Positions 10,153 through 19,904 of a stretch of DNA of 20,000 nt are shown here, piece after piece (within the stretch, counting starts at the first letter, position 1; the number at the start of each line of letters is the position of its first letter). Under the pieces are notes generated by a model. That model ran no database searches. It had not been told where the DNA came from and saw only the letters and a list, made by a program, of their open reading frames with translations. Made by a program: the position numbers and the translations under genes. Origin of the DNA: Malassezia furfur (lineage: Eukaryota); NCBI GenBank assembly GCA_052055015.1, contig JBQJIT010000019.1; one strand, given 5' to 3'.

Positions 10153-10817
10153 TTACAATTGGGCCGGGGGAACCAGCTTGAGCGCGGCCAGGAAGGCCTG
10201 CGAGTACCTGGATGTCAGTCGCGTCAAGGCGGTCCACATACTGCAAGCATTGATCGTATACGGTCTGAAACGCATGATCGCCGAGCTTGAGTTAGTAAAG
10301 GCACATCGTACATACATAGTAAGGATCGTAAATCGTCTTCTTATCGTCGCTGAGTGAGTGTAGACCACGCACAATTCGGAAAAGAGCATGACCCTGATGT
10401 CAGCAAGAGCCACATACTGTGCTTTGGTCCCCTTCGGTTGGATACGCTTGAGGTTCTTGATGTTGTTCGAGCTGCCATTAGCCCATGCGTGCAGACGTAC
10501 TCCATGCCAAAGATGTAGTCAAACTTGTCGAAATCGCCCCGGTCAATGCTCCGTGCGAATGAGTTGATCGGCACGTTGTTCTTCCGGCAGATTTGTGTGG
10601 TGCTGCGTGAGCATGATGGCGCCTGGGTGCGTACATACCGCAGATCGGGCTCCTCGCCGACGTGGTAATCGGCGGTACCGCACGAATCAATCACACCAAA
10701 CTTATCCTGGACATTGTTCCGACGGACCGATTCGGCAAACACGGCCTCTGCCATAGGACTACGGCAGATGTTGCCCAGGCAGCAGAACAACACGTTGATC
10801 TTGTCTGCTCCACCCAT
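10153..10817 (-). CDS. LTP1: Low-molecular-weight protein tyrosine phosphatase, 162 aa, 7 exons
   Basis: Active-site loop VLFCCLGNICRSPMAEAVF. Removing six introns (10603-10638, 10472-10500, 10394-10417, 10350-10372, 10286-10315, 10208-10241) restores FDYIFGMDSNNIKNL, VMLFSEFDD, IYDPYY and FQTVYDQCLQYSQAFL, and gives a family-typical length. Confidence 0.92.
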
Positions 10818-13182: not shown

Positions 13183-14344
13183 ATGTCCTCGACGCAGTCC
13201 CTCACGCCTCAGCAATGGGACGAACGGCTCCGTGAATTGACACAGGTAGAGGAGATTGGGCCTCTCCTTTTCGAAAGCTGCTCCGACGTACGTTTTCTAT
13301 CTAACGCAGACGTCGTATAAACCCGCTGCAGGGCGCGCTGTCTTTGGCGGCCTCCTCATCGCGCAAGCAATGGATGCGGCCAATCGAACCGTTCCTAAAG
13401 GGTACCACCAGCATGTACGTCGTCTCACTTACGTTTGAGGAAATGCATGTGCGTAGCGCCGCGCTAATTTAGGGAAAGTTCTTGAATCCAGGTCAAACCC
13501 GCAAATTCCACTTCGAGGTAACGCGACTGCGTGATGGTCGCTCCTATGCAACCCGACGCGTCGACGCTATCCAAGATGGCATTCTCGTTTTTACCGCGTC
13601 CATGTCGTTCCAGCGACCGGAGCAAGACCAGCCCGAGTATTTCGCTCCGCCGCCTGTTGTGAACGCCGCGAGCAAATTCGAACTGCTGCGCGAAGTCCCC
13701 GATGGACACAGCAACGTTGCGACACATGTACTCCCTCCGGAAATGTGCTTGTCTGGTGAGAACCTGTTCGACTATGCCATGGAAAATATGTCCAAGGACA
13801 GCAGATGGTATGCTTTCTTGGAAGCGACCAAGCGACACCAGGAATGGCTGCCGGTGGAGTATCGGTACGTGGCCGTCTTACCCAGCGTTGCTGTGCCCAC
13901 CATGTTCAACAAAATGGGAATGTACCAATTTGGTACCAAGGTTGCATTCTGGTTGCGGTCAAAGGGACCGTGCGTTGGCAACGAGAATTATCAACGCACC
14001 GTACTTGGATTCCATGTTGAGTACGTTTAGGTTCTTATTCAGCCAATTCCTGCTGGGAGCAATGCAGGCAAACATCAACAAAGGCCCTCCTTCCATGATG
14101 GCAAGCCTGGACCATACCATGTGGTTTTCCAACGCGTTCCACATGAGCGACTGGCTTCTAATGGTCGTGTGTATTCACTTTTGCTTACCCAGATTGAAAA
14201 TCAATCCACCAGCAATGGCCGTGCACTCATATTGGCCCGTATTTACAACAGTAATGGTGTCTTGGTTGCAACTACGGTATGCTATGGCATCGCTTATGAC
14301 AGATCCAAGAGGGCGTCCTCCGTTACAAGGCATCCAGGCTATAG
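13183..14344 (+). CDS. TES1: Peroxisomal acyl-CoA thioesterase II (TesB/ACOT8/Tes1 family), about 331 aa, 8 exons, C-terminal PTS1 (SRL)
   Basis: Motifs GRAVFGGLLIAQA, RLRDGRSYATRRVDAIQ, MMASLDHTMWF, GRALILARIY and IQEGVLR. Introns are at 13288-13309, 13415-13439, 13449-13472, 13865-13885, 14021-14042, 14167-14192 and 14277-14302. The spliced end reads YKASRL-stop. Confidence 0.88.
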
Positions 14345-14378: not shown

Positions 14379-15840
14379 ATGGTTCCCAACGCGCGGAGCG
14401 TTGCTGTGTTGGAGAGCGTTCCGAGTTATGACGATTTTTTGGTACGCGCGAGGGGCTGATACAGAATACATACTTGCTCCCAAACATCCCTGTGATTATC
14501 CCATTTGACCTCGTCCAAGATTGGCCCGCTTATACCGACCTCGTTGATGGAGGCAAGGTGCATTGGACAGCACTCGCGTCTCGCTATGGTGATCACGAGG
14601 TGCCCGTCATCACCAAGAGCGACGAGGGATGTCACCCTAAGACACAGAAACTAGCTGAAGCGATTAAGCAGATCGAAAGAGCATCAAATGTGCCAATATA
14701 CATCAAAGATTGGCACCTGGTTCGCACAGCGCGAACCGATGCCTTGTCGCGTACTTCTGACGATCCCTCGAGCCGCACCTTGCCCTATCGTACACCCTTT
14801 CTGTTTGCTGATGACTGGATGAACAATGTTACACTTCCCGCGAAGAGCGATGCCGCCCCCTTTCTACCCGACGCGTGGCTCCTCTCAGAGCGTGGGGTAC
14901 CCCTTGAGTCAGATGATTTCCGGTTCTGCTATGCTGGCACAAAGGGTTCTTCTACACCTCTTCACCGAGATGGTAGGTACAGAGTACCACTGACACAGTC
15001 TGTTCGTACTAAACCTAATGCAGACGCGTCCTATTCCTGGAGCACCAATATTGCTGGACGGAAACGTTGGCGTCTTTTCGCGCCGGAGGATGCCCATTTG
15101 TTACGACGTACGTCGGATGCTCACAACAGGATTCCCTGATCGGCGTACCTCCGAACTTGCCCCCTCATTTGCAGTCATGGAGGCGTGGCGTGCCGACGGA
15201 AAGCTCGGACCGTACAGCGACGGCCTCGAAGGATGGACAGGGTGGGAGGAAGTTCGCTCGCGTGTATATACAGTGGAACAAGAGGTACGCGTGCTTTTAA
15301 CACAGCCGGGGCAAACTATATTTGTTCCATCAAATTGGTACCATGAAGTTGAGAACCTTACGGATTGCTTGAGCGTGCGTTGCAAAACATCACACAGCTT
15401 AATCACAATTGGTGCAACTCGGTGAACCTCATCAGCATGTATGAAGCCATGGAACACGAGGTATGTTGTGGACACGCCGCTGAGTCAGACCGACGATGTC
15501 ACGGAGGCGTTGAGCGATGTCCGCGAGATGCTTCAGCAGAACAACCCATCGGACTGGCAAACTGAGTTTGCAGGTCTTGTCCAAGACATTGTGCGCCAAG
15601 ATGCAGGCTGGGCCTGGGAAGGATTCTGGCACATGATCTTGCATAACATTACCCAGGTACCGTGTCAGGTACGTCGCGTCACTAATAAAGTCTATCTACC
15701 GCCCTTCCGAAGATTTTGTCTACGCTCGTATTCGTACGCTGATCAGCCGCTTCTCTCACCGAGAGGAAGCCGCCTGGCTTCCAGCCTCGGTTACAACAGA
15801 GCTTCGCCAGCTTTCGGCTGCGGTGGGACGGAACAATTAG
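14379..15840 (+). CDS. JMJD4: JmjC-domain 2-oxoglutarate/Fe(II) oxygenase, JMJD4-like, about 424 aa, 9 exons
   Basis: The spliced product contains PSYDDFLNTYLLPNIPVII, YIKDWHL, FADDWMN, DDFRFCYAG...TPLHRDVYASYSWSTNIAGRKRWRLF and QEPGQTIFVPSNWYHEVENLTDCLSLNHNWCN. Introns are at 14442-14464, 14973-14998, 15002-15023, 15108-15129, 15285-15305, 15375-15397, 15461-15488 and 15669-15690. Confidence 0.85.
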
Positions 15841-15907
15841 TCAGCATGTAGAAGAAGACGTCCCTCGCGGTAGGATGCAACGTTGCTCTTTTCTGCCTTC
15901 TTGCTCG

Positions 15908-18002
15908 ATGAACCACTCGGACGCGTTCGCACACAGCTCAAAGTACCGCTCTGGAAGTGCATGGGATATGCACCAAAACAACATTCGACCCTATTGGGAA
16001 ACGAACTCTCCAGCTGCCGAAAAGTATGCATCTCCGTCGATCCCGGCTGCTGCGCAGCTCCCCACGATGCTCCAATCGATGTATGTGGGCGAGCAACCGG
16101 CACCAACCCCGAATTGGTCGCCTGATCAGCAGCAATGGCTCTACCTTGATCCGAATGGGAATGTACAAGGCCCCTTTGCAGCCACGTCGATGCAGTCCTG
16201 GTACGAGCAGCAGTATCTTTACATGGACTTATTGGTGCGTAAAGCCGAAGAGACCACCTTCCGCCCGCTCTACAGCGTCGTGCAGGAAACGGCCAACTCG
16301 GTCACTCCATTCTTGGTCCCACCTATAGCGACCAAGAGTGCACCACACACGCCCAAACAGCCGGCTCGCACGACATCGGCGGGGGTTGCTACCCCCTCGG
16401 CGTTTGCGGCGGCCCCAGCGGCGGCTCCTTCTCCGGCGCGCGTACCGCAGGCCGAGGCGCTTGAGTCCGCACGCTCCCAGGTCGTTCCAGAACCGGAGCC
16501 CGCGTCGAATGCGGACACCCAGCCGCCGTCTAATCTCACGCCCGAAGATCTGAACACAGCCCTCCGTGTGATGAAACAGCTAGAGTCGATGCTCGTTAAA
16601 AATGGCGCATCGGAGGTTCAAATTACCGAGATGCTTCAGCGCGCAATCTCTACAGCGATGCCGCATGCCAATGCGGCTGGCATTGACCAGATGCAGGCTG
16701 CCGTGCGGGACCAGCGCGGGGAAGCTGCTGCTGAACGAGCCACGTCTGCACCGCAACAGGCTGCGCGGGAAGAGCCTGCGCCGGAAGCGCCGGCAGAGAA
16801 CGTGTCGAGCAAGTCCACGGCGCCTTCTTTGCCAGACGATACCCAACCCTCGTCACAGGACACCCCGAAAGAGAAGCCCAAATCACGTCGCGCAGCGAAG
16901 CGCGAGGCACAGGCCGCTCGTGAAGCGCAGGCTGCTGAGGCTGCGACTGCGTCGGAGCCAGGTACCACCGCCCCGGAGATGGTGGCTCAGGCGTCGGACG
17001 CGCCGGCCGAACCTGTGTCCTCGGGGTCCTCGTCTGCGCTCCCTCCGAAGCCCAAGGTGGCTCCGTGGGCGTCGCCCGCGCAGAAAGGGCCCGCGCAGAC
17101 TTCGCCTGCACCCAAATTGCGTGAGATTCTCGAACGCGAGGAGCGCGAGCGTGCTGCGCGCCTCGCCCAAGAAAAGGCACTGGCTACTGCGCGTCTGGCA
17201 CACGAGGGGGCAGCGCCTGCGCCTGTTCAGACGACACCGACTCGCTCGTCGTCTGGTGCTGCCTGGAGTATACCTACCAAGACACCGGCCGCGAAGTCGC
17301 TTTCTCAGATTCAGCAGGAGGAGAGTCTCGCAGCGGAGCGTGCCAAGGCGGCGCTGCCGCCGCGTCCTGCGGCATACAGCAGCTCTGCTACGCGTGGTGC
17401 GACTACAGCTGAACCGCCCCGCCACAATGAGCCATGGACCAAGGTAGGTGCCCAGGGCAAACCCGTGCCTGCCGCTGCGCCGAAGCCTGCAGCGCCCCCG
17501 AAGCCTGCGGCTGCGCCGAAGCCTACCGCTTCGAAGCCTGTCACGGCGTCAGTGTCCGCACTGGCCGTCGACCCGACGCCCGCGTGGACCGACAGCGAGA
17601 GTGGGTGGGTCACGAAAAAGTCCAAGGGTCAAGTGCGCCGCGACGCGCTAAGCCAAATGAACGACGGGATTCCCCGCCCGACGGGCGCTCCTGCTGGGCT
17701 TTCCGCACCACAACCGCAACGAACGGCCCCCTCTACGACGCCGCTGCCGCCCAGCCCCGAATTCTTGCGGTACTGTCGTGAGCAGCTGCGCGATCTCCAA
17801 GCGAATGGTATGTTCTGTTTCTAACGCAGTCGACGAGTTCTTGGACATGCTCCTGTCCTTCCCCCTGAACCCGTCGCCCGACGTGGTCGAGATCATTGCC
17901 GAGGCAGTGTACGCGAACAGCAAGACGCTTGATGGCCGTCGCTTTGCGGCCGATTTTGTCAATCGGCGCAAGAAGGACGCGTTCCGTGCAGTAGCTTTGT
18001 AA
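15908..18002 (+). CDS. GYF-domain protein (Smy2/Syh1/GIGYF-like), about 690 aa; intron at 17808-17829
   Basis: GYF-like domain QWLYLDPNGNVQGPFAATSMQSWYEQQYLYMDLLVRK, a long Pro/Ala-rich middle region with LREILEREE and SLSQIQQEE motifs, and a conserved C-terminus PSPEFLRYC...NVDEFLDMLLSFP...LDGRRFAADFVNRRKKD after removing a 22-nt intron. An alternative in-frame ATG lies at 15875. Confidence 0.85.
17471..17539 (+). repeat. Coding minisatellite of three 18-nt units plus a 15-nt degenerate unit (AAAPKP-AAPPKP-AAAPKP-TASKP)
   Basis: gccgctgcgccgaagcct / gcagcgcccccgaagcct / gcggctgcgccgaagcct / accgcttcgaagcct. Confidence 0.8.
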
Positions 18003-18026: not shown

Positions 18027-19904
18027 CTATGAGGGCTGGTGCGCACCAGAGGGGGTATGCCCGTCCGCCGAGGGGGGCACAGCCGGCGTCGGTGCCGCCG
18101 CCGCGGCGCTCGGTTCGGCGCCCTTCTGTTGCGGAGGCGCCAACGGAGCCTGCACGGGCGCGGGCGGCCCCGGTGCGGGTGCAGGTGCGGGTGCGGCAGA
18201 GGCTGGTGCATTGGCCGACTGCGCAGGCGGCGCCGCGAGCGGCTCGTTGGCGTCCCCTGCCGCCGGTGCAGCGCTGTGCGTTGGCTGTCCTACCGGTTCG
18301 GCCGCCGAAGCCGGTACCCCCGTGGGCTCCTCCGGGTCCACCTCCATCTCGGTCGGCGCCGGCCGCGGCTCGACGGCCGGGGCAGGCGTCGGCTGCTGCG
18401 GCTCGGGTCGGTGGGAGTGCACGTTGCGGCGGCCGCCCTCGCCCTCGTCCTCTGAATCGCTCAGATCGCCATCGCGCTGGATCCGCTTGTCACGCAAACG
18501 TTGAATTTTGCTCGCACGCTCATCGGGGTTGTCCATATCATCGTCTTCGTCGTCGAGCGCCATGTCGTGGGCCAGGCGCGGCTCCACATGGCCTTGCACC
18601 GACGGCGCCGGTGTGATGTGACGCAGGTTCTCAAACACCTGTTCTTTAACCTTGTCGAGGTACTCGCGTGTGTTGAGATTTTCCATGTTGCTCGGGCGCA
18701 CGTCCAAGCGATAGTCTGGCCCAAAGTACTCGTAATACTCGTTCACCGGCACGATCGGGTTCAGCTCTTGCCCCGCCGCGAGGCCCGTTTCGTAGGCCCA
18801 CGCGCGGCTCACGTTCCGCATCGTATAGCCACCACCACCAAGCAGCAAGAGGGGCAAACCAAAGCTTTTGACAAACTCGACACAATTTGCATGCCCACGC
18901 ATCGACAGGTTGAAACAGCCCAGCTTGTCGCCCGACAGAGAGTCGGAACCACACTGGAGCACCACGGCCGAAGGCTGGTACTGTTCCATAATCCGCCGGA
19001 TAACCGGCTCAAACACGTATTTGTACGACTCGTCAGTGATCCCATCGCGCAGGGGAACATTGCACGCATAATTCTTCCCCTTTCCAATGCCCGTGTCACG
19101 CAGCTCACCCGTGCCCGGGAAAAACTCGCCATATTTATGGAAGGAGCACGTCATCACACGGTCCGTCGTGTAGAAAGCCTCCTCAACACCATCTCCGTGG
19201 TGCACGTCGATGTCGATATACAGGACGCGCGGATGGTAGCGCAACAGTTCGAGGATACCCAGGACAATGTCGTTGATGTAGCAGAACCCGCTCGCCTCGC
19301 CCTTTTTGGCATGATGCAATCCGCCGGCCCAGTTTACTGCAATGTCGCACTTGTCGCGCGAGAGACGCGCCGCGCCCTCTGAGGTTAGCAGGATTCACGC
19401 TTGGCTACGCACCCATTGATCCGCCCGCGGAGATCGAGCAGTATTCAAAGAGGCCATCAAATACAGGACAATCGTCACCCACGTTGTCTGCTGTCAAGGG
19501 CTCGACACGTACATTTGGCCTGCTCGCGCACATAAGCGTCCACGTTGTCCGGCGTCACGCGGTGCAAAAAGTCAACGTAGTCGTCGGTATGAAATTGCGA
19601 CATCTCGCGCTTGGTCGCCGGCTTGGCACGCTACCGTCAGACATTCACGTACAAAAATCTCCATCTTCTTGTACAGGCCATAGTTCATCACCAGCGAGTG
19701 ACACATCCGAATACGCGTGGGTTTCATGGGGTGCCCCGGCCCATAATGGTAGTTTCCGATATCCGAGTCGAAGAAGTAGCACACCCGGGACGGATTGCTT
19801 GAACCTTTAGACACAGGTTCCATGAGCGGCATGCCGCCCGCTCCAGGAATTGCAGGCCCTGAGGAGCCGCCTGCGGCATTCGAAGGCAGAAACGTCGAGC
19901 TCAT
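18027..19904 (-). CDS. RPD3: Class I histone deacetylase Rpd3/Clr6, 598 aa, 4 exons
   Basis: Motifs [94 protein letters not shown] and the acidic [13 protein letters not shown] tail. Introns are at 19631-19652 (22 nt), 19488-19512 (25 nt) and 19379-19412 (34 nt). Confidence 0.97.

Follow-up and report, generated by a model that had tools for sequence, protein, structure and literature searches.

We analysed a 20,000-nt stretch of Malassezia furfur DNA (contig JBQJIT010000019.1, hereafter the window), whose plus strand holds at 14379-15840 a gene that is, judged by its motifs and similarity matches, a JMJD4-like JmjC 2-oxoglutarate (2OG)/Fe(II) oxygenase of 424 amino acids. Our subject is a 3-nt exon of this gene, TCT at 14999-15001, which very probably lies between two tiny introns (here called A and B) directly after the HxD iron-binding motif. 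Once all eight modelled tiny introns are removed, one open frame of 424 residues runs from the ATG at 14379 to the TAG at 15838-15840. The parts of the gene are as follows, homologous proteins being denoted by P numbers and metagenome loci by L numbers.

14379-14441, plus strand: exon 1, which starts with the ATG at 14379 and reads MVPNARSVAVLESVPSYDDFL, with an N-terminus like those of P0006 and P0153 (..AVPSY.AFL..)
14442-14464, plus strand: intron 1 of 23 nt (GTACGC...CTGATACAG), whose excision joins ..DDFL to NTYLLPN, as homologues read
14465-14972, plus strand: exon 2 of 508 nt, with a Cupin_8 match, which ends with the His codon CAC (14963-14965), the Asp codon GAT (14969-14971) and the first base of Val, G
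14973-14998, plus strand: intron A of 26 nt, phase 1, GTAGGTACAGAGTACCACTGACACAG (GTAGGT...CTGACACAG), at a position common to L001-L007 and L018
14999-15001, plus strand: predicted microexon TCT of 3 nt, contributing the last two bases of Val (G+TC) and the first of Tyr (T+AC)
15002-15023, plus strand: intron B of 22 nt, phase 1, GTTCGTACTAAACCTAATGCAG (GTTCGT...CTAATGCAG), at a position common to L001-L007, L018 and L010
15024-15107, plus strand: exon 4 of 84 nt, (Y)ASYSWSTNIAGRKRWRLFAPEDAHLLRR, which holds the Trp and the Lys of GRKRW and aligns to JMJD6 without gaps
15108-15129, plus strand: intron of 22 nt with tiny-intron signals, from the spliced model
15130-15284, plus strand: exon 5, from the spliced model
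15285-15305, plus strand: intron of 21 nt with tiny-intron signals, from the spliced model
15306-15374, plus strand: exon 6 of 69 nt, PGQTIFVPSNWYHEVENLTDCLS, with the second iron-binding His and a JmjC Pfam match (26.4 bits), aligning to GETVFVPGGWWHVVLNL of JMJD6
15375-15397, plus strand: intron of 23 nt with tiny-intron signals, from the spliced model
15398-15460, plus strand: exon 7, from the spliced model
15461-15488, plus strand: intron of 28 nt with tiny-intron signals, from the spliced model
15489-15668, plus strand: exon 8, which ends in ..NITQVPCQ, where homologues have PPC
15669-15690, plus strand: intron of 22 nt with tiny-intron signals, from the spliced model
15691-15840, plus strand: last exon, with the stop codon TAG at 15838-15840

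Re-reading of the window DNA returned the coordinates and letters of introns A and B and of TCT exactly as a previous reading made from the letters of this stretch (the sequence-only reading) had first stated them: exon 2 ends with CAC CGA GAT G at 14972, and intron B is followed by AC GCG TCC TAT TCC TGG. Its claim that each intron has a branch site and an acceptor of its own was likewise borne out, as both open with a GTNNGT donor, close with a YAG acceptor and have the branch motif CTRAY shortly before their end. Since the six remaining modelled introns of the gene are 21-28 nt long (23, 22, 21, 23, 28 and 22 nt), introns A and B match the local intron type. A strict tiny-intron pattern has 12 matches on the plus strand and 9 on the minus strand of the whole 20-kb window, and among these only the A/B pair sits 3 nt apart; from the plus-strand matches, about 12 x 12/20000 = 0.007 such pairs would be expected by chance at any one exact offset. 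Tiny introns of this kind fit Malassezia, the curated annotation of M. sympodialis having a mean intron of 30 bp (PMC5389616).

The possible splicing outcomes of the 51-nt block at 14973-15023 differ in what they encode. With TCT included, the frame reads HRDVYASYSWSTN, i.e. HRD-VY-ASYSWSTN, in which Asp-Val-Tyr comes from GAT G + TC T + AC. Skipping, with all 51 nt removed, reads HRDDASYSW, which has five residues from Asp to Trp and neither V nor Y and so is one residue short, just as the sequence-only reading had it; also in line with that reading, full retention is in frame and stop-free in the window, giving HRDGRYRVPLTQSVRTKPNADASYSW within the open reading frame (ORF) 14432..15139. Excision of intron A alone causes a frameshift (...HRDVCSY, then a stop), and that of intron B alone gives an out-of-frame reading; the removal of A or B singly was therefore rejected together with a candidate donor at 14977, every product being out of frame. 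With the microexon, the Lys of GRKRW stands at Asp+15, as in JMJD6 (D...GHKRW) and in the proteins named human JMJD4, while its position is Asp+14 in the skipped form. A conserved Lys at this position has a 2OG-binding role in JMJD6 and FIH. The HxD...H triad is complete, consisting of H-R-D at 14963-14971 and the second His in NWYHEVEN (exon 15306-15374), and both iron-binding parts align to JMJD6 (HID and WWHVVLN).

As regards the identity of the gene, the ORF 14994-15425 matches Pfam JmjC with 26.4 bits (cut-off 24), and the unspliced fragment 14465-15136 matches Cupin_8 with 24.9 bits, below the cut-off of 27.4; homologue P0010 is above both cut-offs (70.6 and 66.5 bits for JmjC and Cupin_8, respectively). 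Our homologue search of 1.84 billion representative proteins gave 503 matches at E <= 0.001. Where relatives carry names, they are called 'JmjC domain-containing' or 'clavaminate synthase-like' and come from Ustilaginomycotina and Agaricomycotina, and the animal matches to the window fragment are named JMJD4 (P0106, E 8.9e-10; P0135, E 1.6e-8) and have the SxSWSxN motif in common with it. The motif HADIFRSFSWSVN, given for the human protein in the sequence-only reading, is correct, since P0319 and P0317, both named Homo sapiens JMJD4, carry it. The likeness to JMJD4 lies in the Cupin_8/JmjC architecture and in the motif, with identical spacing in HADIFRSFSWSVNVCGRK of the proteins named human JMJD4 and HRDVYASYSWSTNIAGRK of the window; on motif and similarity matches, the fungal protein is a candidate JMJD4 orthologue. 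JMJD4 has been reported to be a 2OG/Fe(II) C4-lysyl hydroxylase of eRF1 (PMC3991326).

A phmmer comparison of the unspliced ORF with PDB sequences gave no match at E <= 0.01. With a profile of 28 full-length homologues, the closest solved structure is JMJD6 (3ld8, E 2.3e-38; also 3k2o and 6mev), and the alignment is gapless across TplHaDVytSYSWStNivGrKrW, a stretch that begins before the HxD His and takes in the Trp as well as the Lys of KRW. JMJD6 thus has the same HxD...W...K...H layout with no gaps over the microexon region, but it belongs to a different subfamily and has P-L where the window's family has V-[YFL]. In the AlphaFold model of P0010 (predicted local distance difference test score, pLDDT, 91.2), V201-Y202-T203 form a short turn between two strands, one with His198 (Asp200 following directly) and the other with Trp207, and Lys215 is on the next strand. 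Loss of one residue would thus affect this connection, which adjoins the metal site.

The spacing around this turn is highly conserved. Among the 150 best of the 503 homologues, 116 contain HxD...SW[SN]xN, and six residues separate Asp from Trp in 110 of the 116, which is the JMJD4-family spacing that the sequence-only reading had ascribed to inclusion; 107 of the 110 were scored by script, and P0034, P0055 and P0129, where the regular expression had caught an upstream HxD, were added, as they also have six. The six exceptions are P0001, which is the window's own unspliced ORF; P0012, with retention of a 27-nt intron; P0040, P0076 and P0144, with insertions after HxDV[FL]; and P0026 (HRDDTSYSW), the only five-residue case among the 116. 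The other 34 of the 150 matches are fragments short of the motif, have stops inside an intron there, or deviate slightly from the motif. That reading had also hinged on orthologues having V-Y after HRD, and nearly all of them do. Val fills position +1 in 105 of the 107 script-typed homologues, the other 2 having Ile there, and position +2 is Y in 46, L in 30, F in 27, M in 2, A in 1 and G in 1. Since inclusion reproduces both the residues and the spacing of the family whereas skipping costs one residue, inclusion is required for the conserved protein sequence. It would restore HxD-V-[YFL]-x-S-[YF]-S-W-S-x-N and, with it, the distances from the metal-binding Asp to the Trp and to the Lys, which lie on the strands that follow.

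We scanned metagenome contigs with the exon-2 alignment, which gave 28 loci, and read the DNA onward from the Asp codon. Conservation of the microexon in relatives, a point raised in the earlier reading, was found: the intron / T-Y-T / intron arrangement is present in five DNA lineages besides the window, all with complete flanking introns. After GAT/GAC they read:

L001/L002: G, a 32-nt intron, TCT, a 26-nt intron, AC ACC TCG TAT TCG TGG
L003: G, 23 nt, TTT, 24 nt, AT ACC TCC TAC TCG TGG
L004/L005: G, 23 nt, TTT, 24 nt, AT ACC TCC TAC TCG TGG
L006/L007: G, 38 nt, TTT, 48 nt, AC ACC TCG TAC TCA TGG
L018: G, 51 nt, TCT, 50 nt, AC ACG TCC TAC TCG TGG

Across the lineages the intron sequences have nothing in common except the splice signals, and their lengths are unrelated. 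In each of the six DNA lineages, the window among them, the microexon begins and ends with T, as GTN (Val) and TAY (Tyr) demand; its middle base, which is the third of a codon and can change synonymously, is either C or T, as is the third base of Tyr in the next exon. Fixed outer bases together with synonymous variation are, at the level of the DNA, the mark that coding constraint leaves on an exon when it is spliced in. The close relative P0235, represented by a naive ORF, has the same 51-nt block with F where the window has S in the retained frame, and its microexon is therefore TTY. Other lineages have one intron or none: L010 has intron B only (GAT GTT T|GT...CAG|AT), the abundant P0012 group has intron A only (HRD-GTQRQCTHT-VYTSYSW, a 27-nt in-frame retention), and L008/L009, P0005, P0029 and all non-fungal loci are intronless at both positions (GAT GTA TAC...). 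These lineages read GTN TAY at exactly the spot of the microexon.

Retained-intron translations extend this picture. The HRDG... tails of P0002-P0004, P0007, P0008 and P0012 imply intron A, and such tails are confined to the Malassezia-like group and L018; the many naive ORFs that end in HRDVC..., where T|GT is read as Cys (P0046, P0053, P0077, P0086, P0092, P0123 and P0163, with HRDIC in P0097), indicate that intron B is widespread. The whole layout is kept across two classes, namely, Malasseziomycetes and Exobasidiomycetes (the DNA of L018 and the HRDD models). When the unnamed proteins P0002-P0033 were compared with the fetched loci by tblastn, no pair had at least 75% identity over more than 21 residues; thus, the protein-only lineages are additional to the DNA lineages, their intron sequences being known solely via retained-intron translations. 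Read back into DNA, the tails of P0002 (..SDTVCT..) and P0004 (..PSLYV..) could both derive from CAG|TCT|GTACG, though in different frames; as back-translation is degenerate, this is only suggestive of the same microexon. As a side observation, the 38-nt intron A of L006/L007 opens with GTATGTTCTAATGCAG, a mini-unit whose 16 nt contain a donor and a CAG acceptor as well as a branch-like CTAAT, which may be chance or a remnant.

In our judgement, TCT at 14999-15001 is very probably a true internal exon, which the mRNA of the JMJD4-like gene would normally contain. Several points weigh against this conclusion. The argument that the exon would be included in the mRNA is comparative throughout; the intron B donor, GTTCGT, is the least typical of the gene; and one 51-nt intron reaching from the A donor to the B acceptor could physically exist, its removal preserving the frame. 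Moreover, the microexon is in none of the public models inspected for this locus or for named orthologues, which we read as predictor failure, yet it leaves no independent annotation support. Finally, the exon-2 protein tree is poorly resolved, with 10 of its 21 inner branches open, so that the gain-and-loss history of introns A and B is not provable from the tree.

Of the competing explanations, regulated alternative splicing survives best, although we consider it distinctly unlikely. It keeps the core of the switch proposed in the sequence-only reading and holds that inclusion and skipping (HRDD...) each give meaningful amounts of product, the skip form being a catalytically altered or dead isoform that escapes nonsense-mediated decay (NMD). 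The A donor and the B acceptor are indeed both good sites, and isoform-specific alternative 3-nt microexons are found in animals, e.g., in Drosophila homothorax (PMC7392893). That skipping removes exactly 51 nt and stays in frame speaks for it at first sight; however, every 3-nt exon skips in frame, so this is uninformative. Neither the sequence nor the relatives hint at regulation, and the skip form would be one residue short in a segment that has a constant length in 110 of 116 homologues, with the near-invariant Val and the hydrophobic residue replaced by Asp. Low-level skipping as splicing noise is possible.

A single 51-nt intron at 14973-15023, with no microexon and the protein HRDDASYSW, would be the simplest gene model, but it leaves too much unexplained, and we regard it as very improbable. 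It accounts neither for the AG-T-Y-T-GT core that six lineages have at the corresponding position, their introns being unrelated in other respects, nor for GTN TAY in the lineages with one intron or none, it gives no reason why the constrained bases should be exactly those of Val and Tyr, and at 51 nt the intron would be about twice as long as every other intron of the gene. Two named models with HRDDTSYSW, P0026 of Ceraceosorus guamensis and P0161 of Exobasidium rhododendri, agree with it; however, both are automatic, and P0026 stands alone with five residues among the motif-bearing matches.

Translation of the retained block as a functional isoform with the 17-residue insert GRYRVPLTQSVRTKPNA is hardly credible: although in the window and in its close relative P0235, where it has the same length, the block can be read through in frame without a stop, it is 61, 50, 50, 89 and 104 nt long in the other five DNA lineages and hence out of frame, with stops in three as well; the naive ORFs P0002, P0003, P0004, P0007 and P0008 all terminate inside it; the window and P0235 are identical at only 11 of 17 residues of the block peptide, against 28 of 28 in the next exon and 138 of 169 in exon 2, the kept block residues being splice signals (GRY donor, LTQ branch and acceptor, VRT donor); and the insert would follow the metal-binding Asp directly. 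In-frame retention looks like an accident of length; a random block length is divisible by three one time in three. We found no sign of alternative forms preserved by selection, as in-frame retention is kept in none of the five other DNA lineages. The proposal in the sequence-only reading that three functional in-frame isoforms act as a catalytic switch was accordingly not upheld, in-frame stop-free retention occurring only in the window and P0235.

With the microexon as a normally included exon, introns A (26 nt) and B (22 nt) would be removed separately, each having a donor, a branch motif and an acceptor to itself. In intron A, the putative branch motif, CTGAC at 14990-14994, is about 8 nt from the intron B donor at 15002, and, given the size of spliceosome footprints, complexes on both sites at once are not plausible. 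From this we infer consecutive removal by intron definition. Either order of removal would leave an ordinary substrate for the second step, and the sequence does not fix the order; half-spliced RNAs would be out of frame. We consider unlikely a stronger version, in which the 51-nt unit would be an obligatorily ordered two-step substrate, probably smaller than the footprint of one spliceosome and kept across Malasseziomycetes and Exobasidiomycetes, which would make it a natural minimal model for a spliceosome re-using a just-ligated junction; low, tunable skipping would then yield an in-frame, NMD-immune, catalytically impaired hydroxylase of a translation-termination factor.

This arrangement has partial counterparts in known systems. 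Fungal spliceosomal twin introns (stwintrons) and 'near intron pairs' are adjacent introns too close for independent processing, which are spliced consecutively, and the window's pair is like stwintrons in that its two spliceosomal introns are too close for independent processing. In a stwintron, however, a splice signal of one intron is broken up by the other, and the outer one can therefore be spliced only after the inner one is gone; we rejected this identity for the window, where both introns have an intact donor, branch and acceptor, with coding TCT between them. Animal 3-nt microexons rely on exon definition and enhancer factors. They include micro-Ex8 of Drosophila homothorax (PMC7392893) and a three-base exon of human MAP4K5 (PMC8632122), which are likewise internal and evolutionarily conserved and add or alter one residue. 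The animal exons lie between long introns and are often alternatively spliced, whereas the window's exon has minimal introns, is presumably intron-defined and gives no sign of regulation.

In Coprinopsis cinerea, long reads support exons of 3 nt (27, in 26 genes), 2 nt (57) and 1 nt (13), in a report that calls microexons 'barely studied in fungi' (PMC12230235). The splicing proposed here had been termed 'mechanistically remarkable' in the sequence-only reading, which is fair, but in view of these exons of 1-3 nt it is not unprecedented. The two cases are alike in that internal basidiomycete exons of 1-3 nt are constitutive coding parts, the missing of which breaks gene models. They differ in that C. 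cinerea provides a genome-wide, RNA-supported Agaricomycete catalogue with ordinary fungal introns, whereas the window case comes from DNA comparison, has flanking introns of only 26 and 22 nt in a whole unit of 51 nt, and concerns an exon that is conserved across Ustilaginomycotina classes and encodes residues adjacent to the active site. Our literature searches on microexons in Malassezia/Ustilago and on 3-nt exons returned no description of this microexon and nothing on Malassezia microexons, and the matches listed for 3-nt exons held no fungal nuclear microexon (one was on fungal mitochondrial genomes). Hence, exons of 3 nt or less are already known in another basidiomycete, while the window's exon is not described before within the literature searched; what sets it apart are the minimal flanking introns, the conservation in two classes and the place next to the catalytic Asp.

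The distribution of the two introns suggests a history that is only a sketch. Intron B would be the older intron, widespread in fungi; intron A would have been added 3 nt upstream in an ancestor within Ustilaginomycotina; and some lineages would later have lost B, and some both. From the exon-2 tree we used only the observation that the no-intron row P0005 groups among Malassezia-like rows; the placement of L006, L010 and L018 in it is unreliable, as their translations cross the ADD|W intron out of frame, and P0018 and P0020 are not in it because the motif cut missed both. The ADD|W intron is an extra tiny intron that L001, L003, L004, L006, L010 and L018 have between ..ADD and WMNN (window 14808-14822), seen as retained readings such as ADDCMCYFLMPGMNNV, whereas the window and P0002-P0006 do without it, FADDWMNNV being unbroken. 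Its presence in some relatives and absence in others indicates that intron presence varies considerably within the gene family. A further full-length relative, P0153 (413 aa, on a 3549-nt contig), is 53% identical over exon 2 of the window and has the correct motif, in a single uninterrupted ORF through every intron position of the window's gene; it is either an intronless gene or a spliced-transcript contig.

Some further observations concern the tiny introns and the neighbouring genes. The 12-nt sequence GTACCGTGTCAG at 15657-15668, just before the intron at 15669-15690, resembles a miniature GT...AG unit; we treated it as coding (VPCQ) because homologues carry PPC there, and its additional excision would still be in frame and give a 420-aa protein. 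The window as a whole has a GC content of 61% and intron-like tiny units (22-34 nt) on both strands, e.g., at 13288-13309 and 13449-13472 on the plus strand and at 10394-10417, 10472-10500 and 19631-19652 on the minus strand. Upstream, at 13473-14344 on the plus strand, lies an acyl-CoA thioesterase gene (Pfam 4HBT_3), which, with a 26-nt intron at 14277-14302 removed, ends in ...IQEGVLRYKASRL with its stop at 14344, only 34 nt from the ATG of the JmjC gene at 14379. Its C-terminal SRL resembles a type 1 peroxisomal targeting signal (PTS1). Downstream, at 15743-17829 on the plus strand, lies a gene for a GYF-domain protein (Pfam GYF, E 9e-17), with a 22-nt intron-like unit at 17808-17829.

In the microexon region, errors are present in six named public models, which represent this gene or orthologues of it. 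P0151, named M. furfur CBS9595_001072 (NCBI), is 100% identical to exon 2 of the window, and yet it is a thioesterase-JmjC chimera that reads HRDG|FPDRR and EQE|LNHNW and has neither the microexon nor the 84-nt exon with Trp and Lys nor the 69-nt exon with the second His (15306-15374). The chimera arises as the model splices ..VATT of the upstream gene into NTYLLPN, so that the SRL end and exon 1 of the JmjC gene are lost. P0152 (M. yamatoensis) has the same type of thioesterase fusion with the same region dropped; that region is likewise gone from P0006 (M. vespertilionis), which reads HRDGRKRW, and from P0241 (M. equina), which goes from SDD straight to RKRW; and P0026 (C. guamensis) and P0161 (E. 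rhododendri) have HRDD, the skip-form reading.

A conclusion from public models that Malassezia lacks a functional JMJD4 would therefore be misleading. Within this one family, all four states (both introns, A only, B only and none) occur at positions 3 nt apart, which would make it a clear-cut case of an intron gained next to one already there, with independent losses after. A conserved 3-nt exon between introns of 22-26 nt would also be an extreme, experimentally tractable case of intron-defined consecutive splicing.

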